Virus record (IMG/VR): IMGVR_UViG_3300033049_000020
Location: 32,001-96,000 of that record
DNA: 64,000 nucleotides
Origin: a virus
Strand: one strand, 5' to 3'
Part shown: positions 12,751 to 59,068 of the stretch, piece after piece
Numbering within the stretch: the stretch's first letter is position 1
Layout of the letters: every line of letters starts with the position of its first letter
Notes under the pieces: model-generated
What the model was told of the DNA's origin: nothing
The model's database searches: none
What the model saw: the letters and a program-made list of their open reading frames with translations, nothing else
Translations under genes and position numbers: made by a program

Positions 12751-13126
12751 GGGGTCGACTGGTTTTGACTGCAAGAGATTGGATGTATAAGCAAGCACTG
12801 GGAATTTTTGGATTATACCAGTATAAAATGTATCTGAAAACTATAACTGACGAAACTAACGTAACATCAGCACAATATCTAGAAAGCATTGCACTTGCAG
12901 TGACTTCAGAGAAGGCAGCGCTATCTGCATAATAAGCGCCAATTAGGAGAAGCCTAATAAAGCCTCAGTGTTCTTTCATTGATGAGGTTGAAACTACAAA
13001 GAAAGATGGGTTTGTGAATTCCTATAAAGATTCACTAGTTTGATGGTTTAGAAAAACTAAATAAGCTTGTAGAAAGTATGTATGGTACTTGTTAGGACGA
13101 GGGTTCGATTCCCTCCGACTCCACCC
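12751..13126 (+). ncRNA. ssrA: tmRNA with 27-codon tag DETNVTSAQYLESIALAVTSEKAALSA (12849-12932)
   Basis: 5' GGGGTCG pairs with 3' CGACTCC-A; T-arm GAGGGTTCGATTCCCTC; ATAACT before resume codon; Ala-ending tag then TAATAA. Confidence 0.9.
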
Positions 13127-15334: not shown

Positions 15335-15408
15335 GCCTTTGTAGCTCAGTTGGTCAGAGTAGGGGACTCTAAATCCTTTGGTCGTGGGTTCGAATCCCAC
15401 CATTGGCA
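15335..15408 (+). tRNA. tRNA with CTA anticodon (amber-suppressor type)
   Basis: Cloverleaf; GGGGA-CT-CTA-AA-TCCTT; two U-U pairs in acceptor stem. Confidence 0.85.
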
Positions 15409-15413
15409 CATAA

Positions 15414-15482
15414 GGGACAATTGTAGGTACGGGTCTGAGATTCTAAACCTCAAGGCATGGGGTTCGAATCCCCATTGTCCCT
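15414..15482 (+). tRNA. Second CTA-anticodon tRNA, degenerate D-arm
   Basis: GGGACAA/TTGTCCC; TGAGA-TT-CTA-AA-CCTCA; canonical T-arm. Confidence 0.7.
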
Positions 15483-15515
15483 CTGTTATTACCAAATAAA
15501 CTTAATATCTTTATT

Positions 15516-21575: not shown

Positions 21576-22616
21576 ATGATTTCAAAGGGGCACCCATTAT
21601 ACATTAATAAAAAGGTTTGGAACAAGTTTTCAGACCAAGAAATGGAACGGTTTGTTAAAGACGTATTTGATAATTATCGAGATTCCTCATTTCCTTACTT
21701 TAATTTATCTCCAGAAGATGTGGAGAAAGGAGTTAAGAAGATGTTGGAGTTTGATACCAGTACTTTGACATTAAAGGATAATACGCTCAAACAAGTAATG
21801 TTAGGATTGAACGTAGTTAATTACTTTATGCCGCATATGTTTGATGTGAAATGTAATAACTTCCAATCCCCAATGGAATGTTTCGAGGATGATGAGAAGT
21901 TCATGAAGGCGATTCGCAAGAGAATTAAGCTTGGAGATAATATGAGTGACGCTGGAATGAGAAAGGCGTTAAGTTGGACAAGTGGAACCCAGAAAGTGTC
22001 TAACTTCAGACCAACAATAGCAAAATACATTTATGATAATTACTCTGGTGATGGTGGTGTACTAGATTTCAGTTCGGGGTTCGGTGGCCGACTATTAGGA
22101 GCCACCACATCAGATAAAGTGAAGAAGTATACTGGCGTTGACCCATCAAAGGAAACATTCTATCGATTGTGTGAACTAGCTGAAGAAATATCGGAATATG
22201 GTACAGACACACCTTACATCGCTATGCATAATAATGCAATAGAGGATTGTGTGTTTTCTGATGGTGAATTTGACTTAGCATTCTCATCCCCACCATACTT
22301 CAATACTGAAGAGTATGCATATGAAGAGACTCAATCTTTTGTGAGATATACCGAAGCTGAATTGTGGAGAGACAATTTTTTAGTACCATTAATAGACAAC
22401 TGTCACAAATGGTTAAAGGAAGATGGGTATTTTATAATCAATATAGCTGATGTAAGGACATATAAGACGTTAGAAGATGATACGGTTAGGTTGGCTAAGG
22501 AAAGAGGATTTAAGCTCGTTAAAACGTATAAAATGGCGTTGTCGTCACTAATGAAAGGAGGGTTCAAGTATGAGCCAATATTTGTATTTAAAAAAGAGAA
22601 CAATGAAAATAATTGA
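21576..22616 (+). CDS. Amino (N4-C/N6-A) DNA methyltransferase
   Basis: LDFSSGFGG (motif I), FSSPPYF (motif IV). Confidence 0.85.
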   Translation: MISKGHPLYINKKVWNKFSDQEMERFVKDVFDNYRDSSFPYFNLSPEDVEKGVKKMLEFDTSTLTLKDNTLKQVMLGLNVVNYFMPHMFDVKCNNFQSPMECFEDDEKFMKAIRKRIKLGDNMSDAGMRKALSWTSGTQKVSNFRPTIAKYIYDNYSGDGGVLDFSSGFGGRLLGATTSDKVKKYTGVDPSKETFYRLCELAEEISEYGTDTPYIAMHNNAIEDCVFSDGEFDLAFSSPPYFNTEEYAYEETQSFVRYTEAELWRDNFLVPLIDNCHKWLKEDGYFIINIADVRTYKTLEDDTVRLAKERGFKLVKTYKMALSSLMKGGFKYEPIFVFKKENNENN

Positions 22617-23024: not shown

Positions 23025-23522
23025 ATGTATAATGAAGTAACAGGTAACTTAATTAAATTAGCGGAGGCTGGAGAATTTGATGTAATTGCACATGGTTGTA
23101 ATTGCTTCTGTCAGATGGGTGCTGGAATAGCACCACAGATGGCCAAGGCATTCGGAGTAGATGACTTCAAGTTGGAAGGTGATGAGTATAAACGAGACTT
23201 TAATAAACTTGGTAATATTGATTACGAACATGTTGGTTATCACCCAAAAGGGGCTAAGGTAGGTAGACGGTTGACTGCGGTTAATACTTATACTCAGTTT
23301 GGATTCGGTAGAAATCATGACAATGGAACTGAGCAACCTTTGAATTATTATGCATTAGGTATGTGCCTGACAAAAATTAATCACGAATTTAAGGGTCAAC
23401 ATATTGGGTTACCGATGATTGGGTGCGGTCTTGCAGGTGGAGATTGGGATGTGGTTAAGGAGATGATTAAAGACCTATTGGTCGATTGTAACGTAACAGT
23501 AGTAATGTACGATGGAATATAG
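23025..23522 (+). CDS. Macro domain protein (ADP-ribose processing)
   Basis: HGCNCFCQMGAGIA; PMIGCGLAGGDW. Confidence 0.88.
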   Translation: MYNEVTGNLIKLAEAGEFDVIAHGCNCFCQMGAGIAPQMAKAFGVDDFKLEGDEYKRDFNKLGNIDYEHVGYHPKGAKVGRRLTAVNTYTQFGFGRNHDNGTEQPLNYYALGMCLTKINHEFKGQHIGLPMIGCGLAGGDWDVVKEMIKDLLVDCNVTVVMYDGI

Positions 23523-24051
23523 AGCAGACATTCCCACACCACCAAATAAAAATAATAAACTATGATAGAAGAAGACAATATAACCGCTCAGTTAATAGAA
23601 GAGCAAGCATCACTAACGATGATAATAGAACAACTGGATAGTATGACCTCAATAGAATTTGTTGAGTTCGGTAACGCAACACGATTGAGTAGAGATATTA
23701 CTAAAGGTAAGATAGAAGCATTGAAATGGGTATTAGAAATAGAGAATGACCAATAAGAAATTTGCATTAACCCTAGTGGCAATGGCTACAATAGGAGCCA
23801 TACCATTATTATTATTAGAGGGTAGAGAAATAATAATTGGAGTCACCGTTTGGTACCTATCAGTATTAGTGATGATAGGTAATGGTACAACCGTAGTAAA
23901 AAATTTTTGGAAAATTAAGCACAAAATACAAAAATAATAGAAAATATTTTCCAGAAGACTTGTATTATTGGAAACTTTTTCGTATCTTTGTACTAATTAT
24001 AATAAACAGGTAGAACTTTCTGCCTAACCTAAAGAATAGAAATCGGTGAAA

Positions 24052-24141
24052 ATGATGAGTATACATATTAGTTCGATTAATTGGAGACGCAATGTCACCA
24101 TGGTCAGCAATTGCTTAGATTTCACCAAAACAGGAATATAA
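24052..24141 (+). CDS. Leader peptide of tRNA array 1: MMSIHISSINWRRNVTMVSNCLDFTKTGI
   Basis: Lies between promoter (23960-23991) and terminator; codons match the downstream tRNA isotypes. Confidence 0.75.
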   Translation: MMSIHISSINWRRNVTMVSNCLDFTKTGI

Positions 24142-24161
24142 AGCAATATCTCGAAAGAGTT

Positions 24162-24196
24162 AAGCCCTGACCAGTTAAACGGTCAGGGCTTTTTTA
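24162..24196 (+). terminator. Attenuator terminator 1
   Basis: AAGCCCTGACC...GGTCAGGGCTT-TTTT; competing TGGTCAG at 24101-24107. Confidence 0.85.
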
Positions 24197-24202
24197 TTAT
24201 AT

Positions 24203-24274
24203 GGTGTTTTAAGCTTTAAGGTGAAGCGCTAGGCTGTGAACCTAGAGAAAACGGCTCGGTACCGTTATTACACC
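24203..24274 (+). tRNA. tRNA-His(GTG), atypical T-loop
   Basis: CTAGG-CT-GTG-AA-CCTAG; G-1/C73. Confidence 0.75.
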
Positions 24275-24327
24275 CTTTAGTGGTCGTTTTTGTACCAGCG
24301 ACATATTTATATTAAAACAATATAGAT

Positions 24328-24975
24328 ATGGCAAGGAAACGAAACAAGTATCACTACATTTATAAGACTACCAATCTTTTAAATGATAAATATTACATAG
24401 GTATGCACTCAACGTCTAATTTAGACGATGGGTACATGGGAAGCGGTAAGAGATTGAGGTATTCAATCAATAAGCATGGTGTAACAAACCATAAGATTGA
24501 GATACTGGAATTCTTCGACAGTAGAGAAGAGTTGGTTAAGCGTGAAGAGGAAGTGGTTAATTTAGATGAAATAGCCAAAGTGGAGTGTATGAATTTAAGA
24601 GTTGGTGGTAGTGGTGGGTTTTCACCAGAACAACAACGATTAAACGCTGAGAAGTCCAATGCGAAGCAAAGGGTTCTTAGGGAAACAGACCCAGAGTGGG
24701 TGGGAGCATACAATAATAAGATTAGTGCTGCTAGAGTAAAGGAGTACGCTGATGGTGAGAGAAGTAAGAAGTGGCAGAAGGATTGGACAGGACTAAAACA
24801 TAGTGAAGAGGCTAAACGAAAGATGAGCGAATCCACTAAAGGTACTGGAACTGGGAAGGATAATTCACAGTATGGTACTTATTGGATAAGTAAAGATGGG
24901 GTTAGCAAAAAAATAAAGAAGGAAGACTTAGAAAGTATGACTCAACAAGGTTGGGTCAGAGGAATAAAAAAATAG
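24328..24975 (+). CDS. Seg-like GIY-YIG/NUMOD3 homing endonuclease
   Basis: YIYKTTN..YYIGMH..YMGSG; NSQYGTYW. Confidence 0.85.
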   Translation: MARKRNKYHYIYKTTNLLNDKYYIGMHSTSNLDDGYMGSGKRLRYSINKHGVTNHKIEILEFFDSREELVKREEEVVNLDEIAKVECMNLRVGGSGGFSPEQQRLNAEKSNAKQRVLRETDPEWVGAYNNKISAARVKEYADGERSKKWQKDWTGLKHSEEAKRKMSESTKGTGTGKDNSQYGTYWISKDGVSKKIKKEDLESMTQQGWVRGIKK

Positions 24976-25051
24976 TTGTTATCTGTGAGATAACATGTTC
25001 TTTGACATCTTGGTATTAATTTTATCCGCACATAACCGTGTGCGGATATAC

Positions 25052-25122
25052 ACAGGTGAGAGCTTAGGAGCCAGCAAGTCTCCAAAACTTCGCTGTAGGG
25101 GGTTCGATGCCCTCCACCTGTG
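25052..25122 (+). tRNA. tRNA-Trp(CCA)
   Basis: ACAGGTG/CACCTGT; AAGT-CT-CCA-AA-ACTT. Confidence 0.75.
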
Positions 25123-25127
25123 CAATC

Positions 25128-25215
25128 GGAAAGGCAAGCCAATAGGTGGTGGCCGCACTTTGCTAAAGTGTTAGGAGTAACCAGTCTCGTATGGGTTCGA
25201 TTCCCATTCTTTCCG
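25128..25215 (+). tRNA. tRNA-Ser(GCT)
   Basis: GCACT-TT-GCT-AA-AGTGT; long variable arm; G73. Confidence 0.85.
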
Positions 25216-25222
25216 CAACAAT

Positions 25223-25305
25223 AGAGGGTACCGTCAAGGTGACAAACTGGTTTTGAACGTCAGGGGTACGGGTGACTGTACGGGTTTCGATTACTCTACC
25301 CTCTA
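25223..25305 (+). tRNA. tRNA-Ser(TGA)
   Basis: AGAGGGT/ACCCTCT; CTGGT-TT-TGA-AC-GTCAG; long variable arm. Confidence 0.75.
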
Positions 25306-25329
25306 CCCTTGACTTTTTGGTACTTAGCA

Positions 25330-25371
25330 CTACGTTTATTCGTAGCAATGGTTCGATTCCATTATCTTCCG
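25330..25371 (+). pseudogene. 3' half of a Ser-type tRNA
   Basis: Variable arm CTACG/CGTAG, T-arm, ATCTTCCG; preceded by an orphan endonuclease-leader motif. Confidence 0.6.
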
Positions 25372-25382
25372 CTTGACTTTAT

Positions 25383-25454
25383 GGTGTCTATAGTGTAGTG
25401 GTAACACGACTGCTTGTGGTGCAGTTATCGTCAGTTCGAACCTGATTAGACACC
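25383..25454 (+). tRNA. tRNA-His(GTG)
   Basis: CTGC-TT-GTG-GT-GCAG; G-1/C73. Confidence 0.85.
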
Positions 25455-25464
25455 CTTAAATTTT

Positions 25465-25580
25465 TAGGTGAAAGCGGAATGGGAGACGCGGCTCTAAAAC
25501 GTGGAGTGTCAGAGACTAAAATCTCGCAATGAAACCTACCAAGGTGAATTTGTAATTGAGTTCGAATCTCAATCACCTGA
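25465..25580 (+). ncRNA. Expanded tRNA-like RNA with extra internal hairpins
   Basis: TAGGTGA/TCACCTG acceptor, GCG/CGC D-arm, TTGAGTTCGAATCTCAA T-arm. Confidence 0.6.
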
Positions 25581-25620
25581 CTAAAATTAAAAAAATGTGT
25601 AGAATTAACAAATGAAATAA

Positions 25621-25694
25621 GGGGAGATGTATAACTGGTTTAATCGGTGGCGTTGTTAGCGCTTACCATGTCGGTTCGAATCCGACTCGCCCCT
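25621..25694 (+). tRNA. Atypical tRNA-Asn(GTT) with extended anticodon stem
   Basis: GGT-GGCG-TT-GTT-AG-CGCT-TACC; canonical T-arm. Confidence 0.6.
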
Positions 25695-25726
25695 CAAAAT
25701 GCCTCCATGGTGTAACTGGATAACAT

Positions 25727-25802
25727 GGCTCTATGGTGTAATTGGATAACATTTTTCTCTTCTAAAGAAAAGTTTCAGGTTCGAACCCTGATAGGGCTAC
25801 CA
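25727..25802 (+). tRNA. tRNA-Arg(TCT), inside a split tRNA-Arg (halves 25701-25726 and 26380-26422)
   Basis: TTTCT-CT-TCT-AA-AGAAA; encoded CCA. Confidence 0.88.
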
Positions 25803-25852
25803 TGTAACGGATAATTTTTGAACTTTATCCATTGCACTCCATATTTATTACT

Positions 25853-26380
25853 ATGGAGAAAGAATTTCTAGTGGATTGTATTGACAAAGATATGTCAGTA
25901 TACCAAATATCTAAGGTGATTAAAAAAGCGCCTAACACTGTTACCTATTGGTTGAACAAGTTTGAATTAAAGACTAACCATAAATCGTTTAAAGATAAGG
26001 GTATTCTTGACTATGGTGGTGAAAGGGAATGTCCCAGATGCACTAAAACAAAGCCGTTAAGTGAATATTACGATAGAAGGGGTAAGAAGGGTTCATCAGT
26101 TTATTGTAAGCCCTGTACCACAGACCAATCTACAGAACGACAACGTAACTTGAAGCAGCTTGCTATCGATTATAAGGGTGGTGGTTGTGAAGTGTGTGGG
26201 TATGACAAATATAATGGTGCTTTAGATTTTCACCATATAGACCCTACTGAAAAGGATTTCAACATATCCAAAATAACTAGTTACACGTTTACTGATAAAG
26301 TTAAAGCTGAATTAGATAAATGTGCCCTAGTATGCTCCAATTGTCATAGGGAGATATATGGTGGGGTAATAGAATTGTAG
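25853..26380 (+). CDS. HNH endonuclease
   Basis: YKGGGCEVCGY..LDFHH..ELDKCALVCSNCHRE. Confidence 0.88.
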   Translation: MEKEFLVDCIDKDMSVYQISKVIKKAPNTVTYWLNKFELKTNHKSFKDKGILDYGGERECPRCTKTKPLSEYYDRRGKKGSSVYCKPCTTDQSTERQRNLKQLAIDYKGGGCEVCGYDKYNGALDFHHIDPTEKDFNISKITSYTFTDKVKAELDKCALVCSNCHREIYGGVIEL

Positions 26381-26829
26381 CCTTCTAAGCGTTTGTTCTG
26401 GGTTCGAGTCCTAGTGGGGGTACATTAATAATTAAAATTAGAAACAATGGCAAGAGAACTATTACCTGAAGTACGAGAGTTCACATATGACTATGTGAAA
26501 AGGTATCCATATACCACTTCAGCACCTATTGTTAGCCTATCTTATATTAAAGGTTGGAGCGATGGTTTGAAGCATATGGAATTGAGAGCATTGGTCATCA
26601 AAGAGATGGACAGAGCTAAGAAGAGAATTAAGGGTGAGAAAGATGACCTTATAACTAAACATGGTGGTAAGTGTAAGAAGTGTAAGAGAGATGTTAAGTT
26701 TGAGGTGATGCCCGATTATGATAGAATGGAAGATTATGGTAGGGCTATAATGTATGGTGACGGTCACGGACACAGCGATGTGATGTATTGTCAACGATGT
26801 TATACGCATAGAATAACAAAATAATAAAT

Positions 26830-26903
26830 TGGGTGTCCTAGTAGTAGGGTACATTGTAGTCTGCGCAGATGAAATTACGAAGGTGCAACACCTTCACACC
26901 CAG
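26830..26903 (+). ncRNA. tRNA-like RNA
   Basis: TGGGTGT/ACACCCA stem; GAAGG-TGCAACA-CCTTC T-like arm; no canonical anticodon loop. Confidence 0.5.
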
Positions 26904-26986
26904 CATATTGACTTATGGTGAAATTGGTTATCACTTGACTTTTATAGAACTAGCGTTATATTTATATCATATAAAGATACATTAAT

Positions 26987-27589
26987 ATGGCTAGTTTAAA
27001 AGAAAAGATAGTAAAATTACGTAAAGAAGGTAAAACGTATGACGATATAAAAGAAAATTTAGGATGTTCAAAATCGACAATATCTTATCATTGCCAAAGA
27101 CATAACGTTGGAGATAAGCGTAAGCGAACGTTTTTAACTGATGAGGATGTTATTAAATTACAAAATTATTACTTAATACACACCATTGAGGAATGCTGTA
27201 ACGAGTTCAACATTTCAAGGACTACAGTACATAGATATACTGACAATAAGATTTGGGGTCTGACGGAGGATGAGAAAAAAAGTAGAAATTATAATAGGGT
27301 TAAATTACATAGACAAAAGATAAAAGAGAAAGCAGTAGAATATAAAGGTGGGGAGTGTGAAAAATGTGGATACAATAAATGCTATTGGGCATTCGATTTT
27401 CACCATACTAACCCAGATGACAAAGAATTTACTATCTCCAAATACTCAACTCTGTCATGGGACAGAATTAAAGTGGAATTAGATAAGTGTGAGATGTTAT
27501 GTGCTAACTGTCATAGAGAATCACATTATCAAGAGTATATCGATGATTTATATTGTGCGGTAACCAGCGTGTCTGATACACATGACTAA
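26987..27589 (+). CDS. HTH plus HNH endonuclease
   Basis: N-terminal HTH; FDFHH..ELDKCEMLCANCHRE. Confidence 0.88.
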   Translation: MASLKEKIVKLRKEGKTYDDIKENLGCSKSTISYHCQRHNVGDKRKRTFLTDEDVIKLQNYYLIHTIEECCNEFNISRTTVHRYTDNKIWGLTEDEKKSRNYNRVKLHRQKIKEKAVEYKGGECEKCGYNKCYWAFDFHHTNPDDKEFTISKYSTLSWDRIKVELDKCEMLCANCHRESHYQEYIDDLYCAVTSVSDTHD

Positions 27590-27630
27590 GGTAACGGTTG
27601 AAAATAAGGGTTCGATTCCCTTTCGCACAA
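27554..27630 (+). tRNA. Rearranged tRNA-Ile(GAT)
   Basis: TGTGCGG/TCGCACA; CGTGT-CT-GAT-AC-ACATG lies before the D-loop-like GTAACGG. Confidence 0.7.
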
Positions 27631-27635
27631 CACAT

Positions 27636-27729
27636 AGGCATGTAGCAGCCCAACCTGATAAGTTGGAGAACTGTAATTGGTATCTTGCGATAACTTCAAA
27701 TGTGGGTTCGATTCCCATCTTGCCTACCA
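27636..27729 (+). tRNA. Rearranged tRNA-Ile(GAT)
   Basis: CCAAC-CT-GAT-AA-GTTGG before GTAATTGG; encoded CCA. Confidence 0.7.
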
Positions 27730-27861
27730 ATAAGTCACCAACGCCTCTCGTAGAAGCGCATCTTGGTATCTAAATGAGAATCAACGGATGTCGGCAGATG
27801 TTGATAGGATTTGTGACGGATGTTTATGGTCATCTAGGGCGTTCTTTTTAAAACCATACTT

Positions 27862-27941
27862 CCAGACATACCGAGCCAAGCTTATATCTTGGATATTCGT
27901 AGCGGTTGTTGAAAACGAGGGTTCGAATCCCTCTGTCTGGA
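27862..27941 (+). tRNA. Rearranged tRNA-Ile(TAT)
   Basis: CCAGACA/TGTCTGG; CCAAG-CT-TAT-AT-CTTGG before GTAGCGG. Confidence 0.7.
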
Positions 27942-28010
27942 CTTTTATAGTTGATTTATATACTTGTTGAATTGTATATGTTAAATTAATTTAGTATCTT
28001 TACATTATAT

Positions 28011-28085
28011 TGCGGATTGGAGCAGTAGTAGCTCGCAAGGCTCATAACCTTGAGGTCGGGGGTGCAAATCCCTCATCCGCTTCCA
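28011..28085 (+). tRNA. tRNA-Met(CAT), initiator-like
   Basis: 1:72 mismatch; CAAGG-CT-CAT-AA-CCTTG; encoded CCA. Confidence 0.8.
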
Positions 28086-28451
28086 GAGGTTTACTTTTTG
28101 TTCCTAGATTAAAGGTCGTAAGATATAATAATATGAAGTCAATTAATCAAATATTCTTAACTAATCCATCGTTGATGGATGAATCTGAAGTAAAAGATTT
28201 AATCGAATATTGTCAAGAACTGGAAGATGACGTAATTGAATTAAAACAGGAAGATGTAGCCATTATGGAGAATAAATTATCAGTATTGGTTTCAGATATT
28301 TATCATAGTATTAATGATGTATTAAAAAAAGACGCTGAATCTATACGATTTGGTGATACTGAACGAATAGATTTTAATAAAGCCATAATTAATTTAAAGG
28401 AGTACTTATTGGATTTTTCTAAAAGTAATGGGTTCTATTTTTAAACATAAA

Positions 28452-28539
28452 TGCAGGGTCGAGAAGTGGTATCTCATGAGTCTCATAAGCTCAAATAGCC
28501 TAACGGTTGTCGATGGTTCGATTCCATCTCCTGCTTCCA
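28452..28539 (+). tRNA. tRNA-Met(CAT), long variable arm
   Basis: TGAGT-CT-CAT-AA-GCTCA; encoded CCA. Confidence 0.8.
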
Positions 28540-28592
28540 GAGGTTTACTTTTTGTACTTTAGCCTTATATTTATATCTAAACGATATAGATT

Positions 28593-29216
28593 ATGGCAAG
28601 AAGAGAAAAGAAGTTTCACTACATCTACAAGACAACTAATTTACTTAGTGGTAGATATTACATCGGTATGCATTCAACAGATAACTTAGAAGATGGTTAT
28701 ATGGGTTCTGGAACAAGATTAAAGAGGTCACTTAATAAACATGGTAAAGAAAACCATAAGGTTGAATTCATAGAGTTCCTTGACACCAGAAAAGAGTTGA
28801 AGGATAGGGAAACTGAAATAGTTAATCTTAATGAGGTAGCTAAAGAAGACTGTATGAATCTGAAGGTAGGTGGTGAAGGCGGCTTCTCAAGTGAAGAACA
28901 GAGAAAGAATTTCCATTCTGCTGGTGGTCGCAAAGTATTCCAATTATTGAGTAGTAGACACGCCAATAGACTAAAAACAGACCCAAATTACAGAGAATAC
29001 TGGTTAGCGTCTTTAAAGCCATACGATTGGACTGGTCGAAAGCATTCAGAGGAAACAAAAGAGAAGATGTCTGAATCATCTAAAGGTATGGGAACTGGAA
29101 AGACTAACTCTCAATACGGTACTTGTTGGGTAACCAGAGATGGCTTAAATAAGAAGATAAAGAAAGATAATCTTAGCGAATTTATCGATGATGGGTGGAT
29201 AAGGGGTCGAAAGTGA
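28593..29216 (+). CDS. Seg-like GIY-YIG/NUMOD3 homing endonuclease
   Basis: Paralog of 24328..24975. Confidence 0.85.
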   Translation: MARREKKFHYIYKTTNLLSGRYYIGMHSTDNLEDGYMGSGTRLKRSLNKHGKENHKVEFIEFLDTRKELKDRETEIVNLNEVAKEDCMNLKVGGEGGFSSEEQRKNFHSAGGRKVFQLLSSRHANRLKTDPNYREYWLASLKPYDWTGRKHSEETKEKMSESSKGMGTGKTNSQYGTCWVTRDGLNKKIKKDNLSEFIDDGWIRGRK

Positions 29217-29506
29217 TTTGTATATGTCAAATATGTTTTGTATCTTTGCACTATGGAAGATGTTAAAATGTTTCTATTCGCAAGGTGGATAGCCACTTGT
29301 TATGCTGACACTCACTTAGATGGTGAGATGAGAAGTGAAGCTGATAAAGGGTTTGACGTATCAGATAATATGTCTGTTTTGAACGGGGAAGATGGTTATT
29401 GGTATAAGAAACAACTCAAACACTTCAATGAAGTTGTATACCCTAACTACCTTGAGAATGGAACAGTTAAGGATACTGAAGACTTCCTTAAAGTAAAATA
29501 ATATAT

Positions 29507-29598
29507 CGCGGAAATGAGGGCTGGTGGTGACGCTCAGATAGGCTCATAACCTATCAGGTTGAAACATACTGTGATTGGTTCGATTCCAACTTCCGCAA
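29507..29598 (+). tRNA. tRNA-Met(CAT), C1-A72 mismatch, long variable arm
   Basis: ATAGG-CT-CAT-AA-CCTAT. Confidence 0.75.
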
Positions 29599-29688
29599 CT
29601 TTTGATATTTCTCTAGAGAGGCTGATACCCGTAGAGTGTAAAGTGGTAATATAGCTTAGAAAGTGAAGTTCACAATATCAAAAAATAT

Positions 29689-29774
29689 TCTCAGTTCGCA
29701 TAGTGGCCGATTGCAGAAGACTGTTAATCTTCCGAGGGTTCCCCTCCACGCTAGTTCGAATCTAGCACTGAGAG
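29689..29774 (+). tRNA. tRNA-Asn(GTT), long variable arm
   Basis: GAAGA-CT-GTT-AA-TCTTC; G73. Confidence 0.85.
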
Positions 29775-29832
29775 CATCTATTTACATTTTCTTGTAAGTT
29801 GACTATATTTATTAACGTAAACAGTTAATAAT

Positions 29833-30282
29833 ATGAGCGATACACGACACAAGAATAAACTATCTGAAGAGTTAGTAACTAAGTTACAGAATTACTATGA
29901 TGAAGGTAATTCATGTCAGAAAACGGCAGATAAGTTTGGCGTTGGTAAGACAACTGTTAGGAGTTACGTTACTATCAGACCTAAGAAATTATTGACAGAT
30001 AAGGAGCGCAAGGCGTCTGCTGTTAAGGCGGTCACCAAACGAAGGCGTAAAATTAAAGAAATGGCCATCGAATATAAAGGTGGTAAATGCTGTAAATGTA
30101 GTTATAATAGGTGTAATGACGTTTTGGAGTTCCACCATTTAGACCCAAGTAAAAAAGATTTTAACATTTCTCAAAGAGGACATTCAAGGTCTTGGGTTAG
30201 AGTAAAAAAAGAATTAGATAAATGTATTATGGTGTGTAGTAATTGTCATAGAGAGATACATGCTGGACTTATAGAGGCTTAA
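29833..30282 (+). CDS. HTH plus HNH endonuclease, followed by a tRNA 3' half (30279-30319)
   Basis: LEFHH..ELDKCIMVCSNCHRE. Confidence 0.88.
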   Translation: MSDTRHKNKLSEELVTKLQNYYDEGNSCQKTADKFGVGKTTVRSYVTIRPKKLLTDKERKASAVKAVTKRRRKIKEMAIEYKGGKCCKCSYNRCNDVLEFHHLDPSKKDFNISQRGHSRSWVRVKKELDKCIMVCSNCHREIHAGLIEA

Positions 30283-30441
30283 CTCTCAGGTCGAGATTTC
30301 GAAATTCTCTGTAGGCGCAAAATGAATTGTCCAGATGGTATAAAGCAGTCTGGTTTAAGGAGTTCGAATCTCCACCTAGGGGTCTTACCCAAGATTCCCT
30401 AGGTATAACAAATCAAGGAAGAGCGTACATTCATTTAACAA

Positions 30442-30513
30442 CCCGATATGGTATAATGGCTAGAACGACACTCTCATAAGGTGTAGGACACAGTTCGATT
30501 CTGTGTATCGGGA
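30442..30513 (+). tRNA. tRNA(CAT), Met or Ile2
   Basis: ACACT-CT-CAT-AA-GGTGT. Confidence 0.8.
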
Positions 30514-30520
30514 CTAACAT

Positions 30521-30590
30521 TGCGGTGCTTAGTGGCAGAGGTCTTTGGCTCATATCCGAAGATAAGGCAGTTCGAACCTGCTCACCGCGA
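30521..30590 (+). tRNA. tRNA(CAT), reduced D-arm
   Basis: TTTGG-CT-CAT-AT-CCGAA. Confidence 0.7.
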
Positions 30591-30628
30591 CACTTGATTT
30601 TTTAGTAATAAATGTGTATCTTTGTAAA

Positions 30629-30967
30629 ATGGAAGAAATTAAAATGAGTGGAGACACTAACAACTTGATAACGGTAAAAGCTAAGATTCGTTTACATAGT
30701 CGAGGTGGTAGAAAAGCTGGCATTGTAAGTGGATATCGACCAGAACACGTATTTGAATATCTACACGGTGACACCATCAAAGCAAATTTCATGGGTCAAA
30801 TAGACTTTGAGTATGATGAAATAAAACGTGGAGAAGATAAAATTGTAACGGTTAAATTCATTAACACTGAAACCGTTAGAGAATACCTTACCGTTGGACG
30901 TACATGGTGGTTGTACGAAGGTGCCCGTCAAGTAGGTGAAGGTAAGATAATCGAAATAGTGGAATGA
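30629..30967 (+). CDS. Stand-alone EF-Tu domain III-like protein
   Basis: GGRKAGIVSGYRPEHVF...LYEGARQVGEGKI resembles EF-Tu GGRH..F..GYRPQFYF...REGGRTVGAG. Confidence 0.7.
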   Translation: MEEIKMSGDTNNLITVKAKIRLHSRGGRKAGIVSGYRPEHVFEYLHGDTIKANFMGQIDFEYDEIKRGEDKIVTVKFINTETVREYLTVGRTWWLYEGARQVGEGKIIEIVE

Positions 30968-31189
30968 ACGAACAAATAAAAAGATTTTTTAAAGGATATA
31001 CAGATTCAATGAATCTACCCAACCTAATAGTGGTACTTATTCTATTTAATGTTATGTTATTTTCGGATGAATTTACATGGTGGGCATTTATGGCTCTAAA
31101 TGGATTCTTCTTCGTAATAACGTGGTTGAACTACTTAACATGGCATTTCGAGAAAAAAAAACTAAAAAGAACCTTAAAAACAAGGAATA

Positions 31190-32380
31190 ATGAAAATCAA
31201 AATCAATGAGGTAAAACAAACCCCACCTAATATGGATTTCGGTCTATGTGTGTACGGGAAGCCTAATGAAGAAGTCACTGAATGGTGTGAACATTGGGGA
31301 TTGGCAACGGAGGAATCTGGAGCTTATACCAACATCATATTGAATGATGACTCTATCTTAGAACATATGTTTGAAGGTCATACGGTGTATAAGTATATGG
31401 ATGGGTTTAGTCCTAATCTTAATAAGCACTTACACGTTGGCCACCTATCCAACTTAGTTTTTGCTTCAGCATTCAGTAATATGGGAGTAACAGCAAAGAC
31501 TATCACTATTTTAGGTGATACGTTAGAGGGTGAAGTCGCTCATAAGGATGCGCTAGAAGAATTTGTAATTATATGTAACCAGTTCAATTATTACGTTGAT
31601 GATTATCATTATGCTTCTATGGTTGAATGCGACCATGAGTTGCTTGTAGCTGGTGAAGACGATTACGAAGGTACTTTAGTATTCGATTTGGGAGAAGAGA
31701 AGATTGTCGGGCTTAAATCGGACGGTAATACAACATACTTCTATCAAGATGTGGCTTTAGCCACACAATTAAATGACGATACATTATACTTGACTGGTGC
31801 AGAACAAGAAAACCACTTTACCCTATTGAAAACGATTGCACCTAAAGTAAACCACTTACCATTAGGTTTAGTGATGGTAGGTAATAATAAACTTAGTAGT
31901 CGAAACGGTAATGCAATGTTAGCTTCCGAATTGATTGCAGAGCTGATGGAAAAGTTAGATAATAACATCGAATTGGTGGTAAACATTATCAAAGGTCAGT
32001 TTTTGAAGTCAAAACCTAACTCAACTAAGAATATCTGGATTAAGGATATGTTAGAACCTAAAACATCCTCTGGATTGTATCTTAGCTACACAATGGCTCG
32101 TTTACTATCTGCTGGGTTGGCACTCCCAACGTATGAAGATATATTAGCTGATTCCTTCATCAGTAAGGAGATTCAATTCGCCTACATTAAGGCAAAGATT
32201 AATATGATGCCTAATACGCTATTAGAAGCGTTGGTAGAGCACTGTAAGATGATTAACACGTTATACATCGACCATCATATTAAGGACAATCCTGAGAATC
32301 AGAAGATGTTCCAGCCAATGTTGGAAGATTTATCTTACGGAATGTTGTGCTTAGGTATGTACGAAGTAACTAAAGTATAA
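31190..32380 (+). CDS. argS: Short arginyl-tRNA synthetase-like protein
   Basis: SPNLNKHLHVGHL, KSDG.TTY..QD, EQ..HF, KLSSRNG, YLSYTMARL. Confidence 0.8.
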   Translation: MKIKINEVKQTPPNMDFGLCVYGKPNEEVTEWCEHWGLATEESGAYTNIILNDDSILEHMFEGHTVYKYMDGFSPNLNKHLHVGHLSNLVFASAFSNMGVTAKTITILGDTLEGEVAHKDALEEFVIICNQFNYYVDDYHYASMVECDHELLVAGEDDYEGTLVFDLGEEKIVGLKSDGNTTYFYQDVALATQLNDDTLYLTGAEQENHFTLLKTIAPKVNHLPLGLVMVGNNKLSSRNGNAMLASELIAELMEKLDNNIELVVNIIKGQFLKSKPNSTKNIWIKDMLEPKTSSGLYLSYTMARLLSAGLALPTYEDILADSFISKEIQFAYIKAKINMMPNTLLEALVEHCKMINTLYIDHHIKDNPENQKMFQPMLEDLSYGMLCLGMYEVTKV

Positions 32381-32520
32381 TGGCGACTATTGGAGAAAAC
32401 TGGAATGAGCATGAGTCAGATGATAAGGTGCTAATGATTCTTGCCTTTGTAATTGGTTTTATAATGGCAATGGGATTTGGATTAGGTTTTTTAATTGCTT
32501 GGTTCATGTTTGCTTAAAAC

Positions 32521-32591
32521 GCCCCTATGGTGTAATGGATGCATAAGACTTTCCTAAAGTTTTGGTGGAGGTTCGAACCCTTCTAGGGGTA
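32521..32591 (+). tRNA. tRNA-Arg(CCT)
   Basis: AGACT-TT-CCT-AA-AGTTT. Confidence 0.82.
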
Positions 32592-32594
32592 CAC

Positions 32595-32667
32595 ACTCTC
32601 TTGGTGTAACTGGATAGCACTTGAAACTACGAATTTCAGAGTAAGAGTTCAAATCTCTTGGAGAGTA
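32595..32667 (+). tRNA. tRNA-Arg(ACG)
   Basis: TGAAA-CT-ACG-AA-TTTCA. Confidence 0.85.
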
Positions 32668-32673
32668 CTTTAT

Positions 32674-32752
32674 GGCGGTGTAGCCCGTTCAGGTTTCGAC
32701 CCTGTTAACGGTAATGGAGCTGCAAATGTGGGTTCGAATCCCACCTCCGTCT
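32674..32752 (+). tRNA. Rearranged tRNA-Arg(TCG)
   Basis: CCGTT-CAGG-TT-TCG-AC-CCTG-TT-AACGG then TAATGGA. Confidence 0.7.
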
Positions 32753-32785
32753 CAACGTTACAGTATATACTTTATTGTGTAATAT

Positions 32786-32865
32786 GGGGGTATAACCGAC
32801 TAAGTTTTCTAAACTTTTAATCGTAATCGGAGTTGAAAATGGGGGTTCGAGTCCCTCTACCCCTT
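32786..32865 (+). tRNA. Rearranged tRNA-Arg(TCT)
   Basis: AAGT-TT-TCT-AA-ACTT then GTAATCGGA. Confidence 0.7.
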
Positions 32866-48577: not shown

Positions 48578-48673
48578 ATGTTTACAACAATTACAATATT
48601 AGTCTTATGTTTACTGAGCAGCGTGGTGCTGTTGAGGCAAGAGAGCTATGATGTAATCTATTGTAAAGCATAA
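48578..48673 (+). CDS. Leader peptide of tRNA array 2: MFTTITILVLCLLSSVVLLRQESYDVIYCKA
   Basis: Promoter, Leu/Val/Cys-rich uORF, terminator. Confidence 0.75.
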   Translation: MFTTITILVLCLLSSVVLLRQESYDVIYCKA

Positions 48674-48698
48674 AGAACTACAATACTTAATACATTAG

Positions 48699-48729
48699 AA
48701 GCTCTTACTCTCCAGTAAGGGCTTTTTTT
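48699..48729 (+). terminator. Attenuator terminator 2
   Basis: AAGCTCTTACT-CTCC-AGTAAGGGCTT-TTTTT. Confidence 0.85.
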
Positions 48730-51887: not shown

Positions 51888-53162
51888 ATGAAAGAAGATA
51901 AGTTTTACTGTTTGACTATGTTTCCTTATCCTAGTGGTAGTGGGTTGCATGTCGGTCACGCCTATAACTACGCTGTTATGGATAGCTATTGCCGTTGGAA
52001 GAATTTCTGTGGCGTAGAGACATTCCAACCGTTTGGTTATGATGCATTTGGCTTGCCAGCAGAGAATTACGCTATTAAACACAATCGAGACCCAAGAGAG
52101 ATTACTTATGAAAATATCGATAATTTTCGTGGTCAAATGGATAGAATGACTACCAATTACGAAGAGATGGTTATCACTTCTGACCCATCTTACTACAAGT
52201 GGTCACAATGGTTGTTCACCAAGATGGTGGAACACGATATGGCCTACAAGAAGAATGCGCCTGTGAATTTTTGTCCTTCATGTAATACTGCTTTGGCTAA
52301 CGCTCAAGTGGTTGAAGATAAGTGTGAACGATGCGATACTAAGGTAGAACAACGAGATATGAACCAATGGTTTTTCAGGTTGAGCAAGTATGCAGATAGG
52401 TTGGTCTCCAACTTGGACATCATTGACTTCCCAGAGAAGACAAAGAAGCAGCAACGTCACTGGTTGAAAGAACCCCAAGATTGGTGTGTATCTAGGCAAA
52501 GAGCTTGGGGTACACCAATCCCTATTAAGGGAGAAACCGACACATTGGATACATTCGTTGACAGCTCATTTTACTTTATAAGGTATTGTGACCCAACTAA
52601 CGAGAATGAAATAGCCGCTAAGGATAAGATACGTCAAGTAGACTTGTATGTAGGTGGTAATGAACACGCTTGTATGCACTTGGTGTATGCTAGGTTTGTA
52701 AATATGTTCTTGTTTGATATTGGTGTGACCCCATTTGAAGAGCCATTCAAGAAATTGGTTCACCAAGGTATGATAATCAAGGATGGTGAGAAGATGAGCA
52801 AATCTAAAGGTAATATTGTTAATCCAGACGATTATGACCCAGACGAGATGCGAGAATATTTGATGTTTTTGGGTCCTTATACCCAAGGTGGTGATTGGAG
52901 CGATAGTGCTATGGTGGGCATTAGGAGGTTCAACGGTAGGTTTAATAGATGGTTGGGTAATGCCCAGATTGACGGTGAATCAATAGATGTTGGACAATTG
53001 ATGAGTGATATTGATAAAAATGTGGAGATATTTAATTTTCATTTGGTTATTAGTTCATTTATGAAATTCTATAATTCAAACAAGGGTAAAGTTATCAACA
53101 TTAACACTAAGAATGAATTGACTAAAATGTTTACCTGTTTTGCACCCAATTTTACGTCTTAG
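51888..53162 (+). CDS. leuS: Short leucyl-tRNA synthetase-like protein (no CP1 editing domain)
   Basis: MFPYPSG..LHVGH, DAFGLPAEN, DWCVSRQRAWGTPIP, DTFVDSS, KMSKSKGN; only 424 aa. Confidence 0.88.
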   Translation: MKEDKFYCLTMFPYPSGSGLHVGHAYNYAVMDSYCRWKNFCGVETFQPFGYDAFGLPAENYAIKHNRDPREITYENIDNFRGQMDRMTTNYEEMVITSDPSYYKWSQWLFTKMVEHDMAYKKNAPVNFCPSCNTALANAQVVEDKCERCDTKVEQRDMNQWFFRLSKYADRLVSNLDIIDFPEKTKKQQRHWLKEPQDWCVSRQRAWGTPIPIKGETDTLDTFVDSSFYFIRYCDPTNENEIAAKDKIRQVDLYVGGNEHACMHLVYARFVNMFLFDIGVTPFEEPFKKLVHQGMIIKDGEKMSKSKGNIVNPDDYDPDEMREYLMFLGPYTQGGDWSDSAMVGIRRFNGRFNRWLGNAQIDGESIDVGQLMSDIDKNVEIFNFHLVISSFMKFYNSNKGKVININTKNELTKMFTCFAPNFTS

Positions 53163-58923: not shown

Positions 58924-58992
58924 ATGAGAAACTTTAACGACATATTCGAATTCAACTTTGCCGCATTTGCGGAGGAGGATGATTGCATCTAG
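58924..58992 (+). CDS. Leader peptide of tRNA array 3: MRNFNDIFEFNFAAFAEEDDCI
   Basis: Promoter, Phe/Ala/Glu/Asp-rich uORF, terminator. Confidence 0.8.
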   Translation: MRNFNDIFEFNFAAFAEEDDCI

Positions 58993-59034
58993 ATGCCAAA
59001 GGATATGTTGTAAACGAAACTCAATACGATATAC

Positions 59035-59068
59035 AAAACCTTTGGCTAACCAGTCAAAGGTTTTTTTT
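59035..59068 (+). terminator. Attenuator terminator 3
   Basis: AAAACCTTTGGCT-AACC-AGTCAAAGGTTTT-TTTT; competing GCCAAAGG at 58995-59002. Confidence 0.88.

Follow-up and report, generated by a model that had tools for sequence, protein, structure and literature searches.

A candidate ribosome-mediated transcription attenuator in front of a phage tRNA array

Four tRNA cassettes and the contents of array 1

We analysed a 64,000-nucleotide stretch (the window; G000:C1:32001-96000) of a 152-kb virus record, in which a promoter (23960-23990), a short leader ORF (24052-24141) and an intrinsic terminator (24162-24197) precede a long tRNA array (array 1; 24203-32865), all on the + strand. We refer to this unit as cassette 1. 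Genes for a macro-domain protein and a DNA methylase (23025-23522 and 21576-22616) lie directly upstream of it. The 152-kb contig encodes primase, exonuclease, SbcC-like and sigma-factor genes and carries about 50 tRNA genes, a tmRNA and two amber-anticodon tRNAs. A single-protein scan of viral contigs and a DNA search of GenBank phages returned no close relative, and no cultured close relative was found. The element TATCTTTG, the Bacteroidota -7 promoter element, occurs 50 times along the coding strand and 10 times along the opposite one, and from this strand bias the phage host is probably a member of the Bacteroidota. Throughout the window, TATCTTTG often stands just 4-5 nt 5' of an ATG (e.g. 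29241, 30617 and 46457), a spacing that suggests leaderless mRNAs.

Each of the four tRNA arrays on the contig is preceded by the same promoter, an ORF of 22-31 codons and a U-tailed terminator. Apart from a few weak relaxed calls, the arrays divide the 20 amino acids into sets of seven, three, four and six (H/W/S/N/R/I/M, C/V/L, F/E/A/D and P/Q/Y/G/K/T). In cassette 2 (48578-48729, + strand), a Leu/Val/Cys leader and terminator are followed by Cys/Val/Leu tRNAs and a LeuRS-like gene; in cassette 3 (58924-59068, + strand), a Phe/Asp/Glu/Ala leader and terminator precede Phe/Glu/Ala/Asp tRNAs. Cassette 4, with a Thr/Tyr/Lys/Gly/Gln/Pro leader, lies outside the window at G000:C1:109643-109800. 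The fraction of leader residues 2-20 that belonged to the set of the leader's own array was 0.84, 0.53, 0.74 and 0.79, against at most 0.26 for the other arrays. Together, 55 of 76 residues matched, compared with 19 ± 5.5 for random partitions, none of which did as well in 1e6 trials. Synonymous codon diversity in the four leaders was not above chance (p=0.24; GC3, p=0.054), leaving a design at the level of isoacceptors unsupported in this genome. The two CTA-anticodon tRNAs, a tRNA-Cys and the tmRNA (15335-15483 and 12751-13125) stand outside the putatively attenuated arrays. Since TAG ends 5 of 44 long ORFs, there is no sign of general recoding; leader 3 also ends in TAG.

Array 1 holds tRNA genes for His (two), Trp, Ser (two), Asn (two), Arg and Ile and five with a CAT anticodon, interspersed with GIY-YIG/HNH-like and other ORFs. 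The original prediction had listed these isotypes and no others. ARAGORN at default settings called two His, Ser GCT, Arg TCT/CCT/ACG, Asn and four CAT genes and no further isotype, and relaxed scores added Trp, Ser TGA and the second Asn. Pro, Ala and Cys calls appeared only at -ps85/80, where they overlapped an ORF or D-armless genes. The restriction to seven isotypes therefore stood, with a less regular gene complement than had been listed: the Ile GAT/TAT and Arg TCG genes lack a D arm, and the fifth CAT gene (30520) has a cloverleaf fold yet falls below the Rfam cut-off. Three of the D-armless genes (27554-27941, + strand), with Ile anticodons GAT, GAT and TAT, were matched by Rfam only, and the Arg TCG and second Arg TCT genes share their layout, in which the anticodon arm begins about 6 nt past the acceptor and sits inside a short helix formed with a segment 3' of the arm. 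The five genes lie at 27554-27630, 27636-27726, 27862-27941, 32674-32752 and 32786-32865, their anticodons agree with leader 1, and genes of a similar kind occur in orthologous arrays (L183, L184, L190 and L209). On these sequences, Ile sensing in array 1 would rest on non-canonical genes; the same array in relatives has a canonical tRNA-Ile(GAT).

Several further elements lie within the array. The apparent 5' and 3' halves of a split tRNA-Arg(TCT) gene (25701-25727 and 26378-26425) are about 650 nt apart, separated by another tRNA-Arg and an HNH-like ORF (25832-26380), which looks like an endonuclease insertion. Two tRNA-like elements (25464-25583 and 26830-26905) have an acceptor stem and T arm without an assignable anticodon, and a similar one is found at G000:C1:105677-105762. 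A short ArgRS-like protein of 396 aa (31190-32380, + strand) has more than 600 relatives of equal length in phage-like contigs; both it and the LeuRS-like protein of 424 aa (51888-53162) are much shorter than the bacterial enzymes. Internal promoter-like sites were found on the + strand at 29218-29248 and at 30594-30624, the latter ahead of a stand-alone ORF of 112 aa resembling EF-Tu domain 3 (30629-30967). These sites may bypass the switch proposed below and transcribe the distal 40% of array 1 regardless of it; from 23990 to 29218, a stretch holding 11 tRNA genes, no promoter-like match was detected. A boxA-like motif, GTTCTTTGAC (24997-25006, + strand), has 8 copies on the + strand, where 0.7 would be expected, and the heads of the four arrays account for 5 of these. 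It occurs 3' of all four terminators, a placement that would be in keeping with antitermination of the Nus type across long non-coding arrays.

Architecture and predicted folding of leader 1

The sigma-A promoter consensus of Bacteroidota is well established, and the cassette 1 promoter is of this type, with TTG at -33 and TAnnTTTG at -7; near-identical promoters stand before all four leaders. The ORF beginning at 24052 has 29 codons and a stop at 24139-24141, and reads as had been claimed, its first 14 codons drawing on only seven isotypes. The true start may be the second ATG (24055), as the nearest relative (L185) has ACG in place of the first and keeps TGGTCAG/CTGACCA. The control codons, 2-14 (24055-24093), specify solely Met, Ser, Ile, His, Asn, Trp and Arg, with a predicted effective window of about codons 4-13; the Met codons at positions 1-2 are at the edge of this window, and an internal Met is present in most orthologues. 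The two Ser boxes are both represented, as are the two Arg boxes and the two Ile readers. Of 31,186 13-mers in the proteome of the phage, none is made up solely of these seven residues. The probability of such a restriction by chance is about 1e-7 at a fixed position, or about 3e-6 once the N/T/I-rich N-termini common to all these leaders are allowed for.

The predicted fold contains four elements. The first is a protector (1:2) hairpin (24071-24108; -9.3 kcal/mol) with an inner hairpin at 24082-24100. Next comes the antiterminator strand TGGTCAG (segment 2; 24101-24107), the partner of which, CTGACCA (24167-24173), lies within the 5' arm and loop of the terminator. A hairpin nested within the antiterminator (24110-24147; -7.4 kcal/mol) contains the stop codon. 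The terminator itself has an 11-bp stem (24162-24191) followed by a U tract, and the first gene of the array, a tRNA-His, begins 6 nt past this tract. Folding gave -17.9 kcal/mol for the antiterminator, -7.4 of which comes from the nested hairpin, and -21.1 kcal/mol for the terminator. The complementarity of TGGTCAG to the terminator arm had been pointed out in the original prediction and its positions were confirmed; with p=0.025, the 7-nt match on its own is weak evidence, and the orthologues described below supply its support. A predicted protector helix, in which the control codons pair with TGGTCAG, is an addition to the attenuator as first proposed. A search of Rfam matched the leader to neither a leader nor a T-box family, a weak sub-threshold match to the rnk leader being driven by the terminator and discarded. 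No NCBIfam family matched the leaders.

It had also been claimed that a ribosome stalled early would leave TGGTCAG free, and a folding scan with a modelled ribosome agreed. Once the terminator arm had been made, the antiterminator held (0.83) with the A site at codons 2-13 and dropped from codon 14. Before the terminator arm exists, segment 2 was predicted to be paired upstream (0.89 here; orthologue mean, 0.76), and a ribosome on the control codons freed it (0.09-0.56 from codon 4 on). In an equilibrium model, segment 2 re-paired with the terminator arm both with a ribosome at the stop codon and with none (0.82-0.86), so the order of folding must decide termination. The same scan showed no clear switch for leader 2.

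Conservation and distribution of leader-array pairs

Orthologues of leader 1 were collected by two pattern scans of IMG/VR, which yielded about 30 contigs. The counts below are not independent, as the orthologues are related to one another and the Trp-Arg-Arg-Asn codons were set by the search patterns; the conservation of this core among the orthologues is likewise partly imposed by the search. The arrays behind 27 distinct orthologous leaders gave 177 assignable tRNA calls, every one of them for His, Ile, Met, Asn, Arg, Ser or Trp; 17 were canonical Ile GAT. In the control regions, 320 of 326 codons fell within the seven-isotype set. Segment 2 and the terminator arm varied in concert (GTCAG/CTGAC, GTCGGG/CCCGAC, GTCAAGG/CCTTGAC and GAGACG/CGTCTC). 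In total, 20 cells changed on both sides, compared with 5.7 after shuffling (0/500), and the duplex of segment 2 with its own arm averaged -13.3 kcal/mol against -9.8 kcal/mol for permuted pairs (0/20000). In a second leader family, segment 2 and the terminator arm also changed together. For the protector, predicted pairing in the orthologues averaged 0.76, with covariation not above that of shuffles.

The switch point in the orthologues was predicted to lie just past the last control codon. Where the spacer is longer, the antiterminator was lost two codons later, and the added codons are Ser and His. The reading frame past the control codons is not conserved, being offset by one base between this phage's group and the remaining orthologues, which makes it unlikely that the tail of the leader peptide matters. 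The covariation, together with the folding scan, supports the claim that leader 1 is a leader-peptide attenuator.

We then collected leader/array pairs from unrelated phages using the array 1 ArgRS-like gene as bait and a rule blind to composition: a terminator just 5' of a tRNA gene, and an ATG-initiated ORF ending just 5' of the terminator. Among 28 such pairs, the mean match was 0.61, compared with 0.26 ± 0.04 after permutation (0/1e5). Held-out arrays fetched later, including those of the cultured Cellulophaga phages phi4:1 and phi38:1, gave the same leader-array match. A 274-kb IMG/VR contig has a four-way partition identical to that of this phage. LR745206.1 is divided into N/R/L/V/I/T/M, P/D/Q, Q, H/F/W/K, R/S, E/Y and I/G/M/A blocks, each with a matching leader. 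In phi4:1 (NC_021788.1; L154, 86.2-91.5 kb) and phi38:1 (NC_021796.1; L156, 34.5-39.3 kb), there are three cassettes per phage, one for P/E/Q/H/L/R, one for K/I/G/M/D/T/V/R and one for Y/S/N/W/F/C, with the terminators of phi38:1 at about 35.4, 36.9 and 38.1 kb of its record; one leader has a GTG start, an antiterminator was predicted for each cassette, and none is annotated as a leader in the record. Strand-specific RNA-seq of phi38:1 infection has been published and reported six unexplained intergenic non-coding RNAs (PMC5335546).

Arg-rich leaders with a terminator were also found about 30 nt 5' of a phage ArgRS gene with no tRNA between (L037, L039, L056, L061, L068, L069 and L102; also L003), and these would attenuate a viral synthetase in the manner of pheM. 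No codon-matched leader was found before the tRNA clusters of phages PAU, immuto and pT24, one mixed MAG-contig array or six small MAG tRNA loci, indicating that such leaders are not universal. A search with a terminator-shaped DNA pattern gave 11 matches, all without tRNA arrays.

A model for the switch and its trigger

We consider it highly probable that array 1 is gated by a ribosome-mediated transcription attenuator acting on a phage tRNA operon. In this model, host RNA polymerase would initiate at the promoter and a ribosome would translate the leader. With fast decoding at the His, Ile, Ser, Asn, Trp and Arg codons, the ribosome would pass over segment 2, which behind it would refold with the control region as the protector; the terminator would then form and the array would stay off. 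A shortage of any of these aminoacyl-tRNAs would stall the ribosome at about codons 4-13, where it covers the protector strand, both leaving segment 2 uncovered and releasing it from the protector. Segment 2 could then pair with the loop-proximal terminator arm, and polymerase would enter the matching tRNA genes. The phage probably makes the array tRNAs only when ribosomes decode the codons of the leader slowly, and four cassettes for 20 amino acids would amount to modular negative feedback on tRNA supply. From the computed anatomy, composition match, conservation, covariation and stall geometry, we infer that the leader is translated, that polymerase reads through and that the switch runs in this direction in vivo.

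What the switch responds to is a separate question. We infer that what naturally sets it off is the loss of functional tRNA, not a mere lack of amino acid. We propose, tentatively and at somewhat less than even confidence, that the cassettes form a closed-loop tRNA homeostat spanning the entire code, each cassette detecting the loss of particular host tRNAs and switching on only its replacement block as an inducible, RNA-only counter-defence; such loss could come, for example, from anticodon-nuclease immunity or phage-induced decay. It is rather unlikely that the same attenuator senses amino-acid starvation, as in the biosynthetic operons, and tunes phage tRNAs and synthetases to host nutrients. 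The two readings differ only in the trigger, and the mechanism cannot separate starvation from tRNA loss. ArgRS- and LeuRS-like genes in the arrays, Arg leaders that control ArgRS alone and a codon diversity not above chance, with a conserved TCG that may be structural, are all in keeping with a response to starvation. However, the output is mostly tRNA, and extra tRNA should bring no relief for a missing amino acid; moreover, biosynthesis genes were not seen in array 1, and leader 1 samples both Ser and both Arg boxes and both Ile readers.

Two other explanations would dispense with codon-specific sensing. If the leader sensed translation coupling in general, or acted as an arrest peptide, read-through would follow from any slowdown, such as one caused by host shut-off, antibiotics or a ligand, and codon identity would be secondary. 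The Trp-Arg-Arg-Asn core is conserved in the orthologues, as arrest motifs are, and the Anabaena tRNA array answers general translational stress (PMC8421152). This is nonetheless very improbable, as leader composition tracks array composition over many differing partitions, the leaders of different arrays being wholly different, and the invariance of the core derives partly from the search pattern. We give still less credence to the idea that the ORF is incidental or encodes a functional small protein, with a constitutive terminator and the tRNAs transcribed from other promoters. The promoter-like sites at 29218 and 30594 and the strength of the terminator would allow for it, but the 11 tRNA genes between 23990 and 29218 have no such site, and neither the composition match and covariation nor the unconserved tail and the lack of an NCBIfam family fits such a role.

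Returning to the attenuator reading, cassette 1 has, as far as sequence and in silico folding tell, the following features of the trp/his/thr/ilv attenuator class, together with a predicted protector helix over the control codons. There is a short ORF between the promoter and the regulated genes, its codons are cognate to the downstream function, and a U-tract terminator stands before the first gene. The antiterminator excludes the terminator and shows compensatory changes, and in silico a stall on the control codons frees segment 2, whereas passage covers it. The thrL, ilvGMEDA leader, ilvBN, trpL, hisL and pheL attenuators (PMC1183508) are alike in their short cognate-codon ORF, their antiterminator and terminator, their stall geometry and, as predicted for cassette 1, their protector. 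They differ in that the phage cassettes regulate tRNA genes rather than biosynthetic enzymes, would address six or seven isotypes simultaneously, each through one or two codons, and divide the whole code among four units. Cassette 1 falls outside the narrow class of amino-acid operons, as the regulated genes are tRNAs, endonuclease-like ORFs and ArgRS.

The pheM-pheST and trpS2 leaders (bioRxiv 10.64898/2026.09.09.750475) likewise feed charged-tRNA supply back through leader codons. Of known systems, pheM-pheST is the nearest in logic, and the Arg leaders before phage ArgRS genes are its direct analogues; pheM-pheST and trpS2 differ in having a single amino acid, a protein-coding target and a bacterial chromosomal location. 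The trn L-array of Anabaena PCC 7120 is also a long supernumerary tRNA array with a homing endonuclease that is silent until translation is impaired, but it is a single array with a proposed repressor acting on promoter direct repeats, whereas the phage arrays are sorted by isotype and, as proposed here, gated by terminators; the paper on it mentions neither attenuation nor a leader (PMC8421152). The tRNAs of T5 rescue the phage against PARIS/AriB immunity (PMC12409363), making PARIS-type defence a plausible trigger for the phage cassettes by analogy. Both these counter-defence tRNAs and the tRNA/synthetase sets of huge phages (PMC7162821) can replace those of the host, with no sensing or attenuation described; in the huge-phage paper, the words "attenuation" and "leader" have no matches (PMC7162821). 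The absence of the Rfam T-box motif from cassette 1 sets it apart from T-box riboswitches. These are terminator/antiterminator switches that respond to tRNA charging by binding tRNA directly, without translation. Our literature search, in which coverage of subscription papers was poor, turned up no account of tRNA genes under the control of a leader-peptide attenuator. The mechanism would be classical attenuation; its target, phage tRNA arrays, and its scale are apparently unpublished.

The reason for which phages carry tRNAs has long been debated, with codon bias, host tRNA decay and anti-defence all considered. Where a leader spells out the isotypes under its control, slow decoding of the corresponding codons would be the signal under selection, which turns this into a testable question, and the cassettes of the cultured phages phi38:1 and phi4:1 make the system accessible to experiment. 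The leaders could also help to identify odd tRNAs overlooked by gene finders. More broadly, these cassettes would take ribosome-mediated attenuation beyond protein-coding operons, to tRNA genes, and also into viruses.
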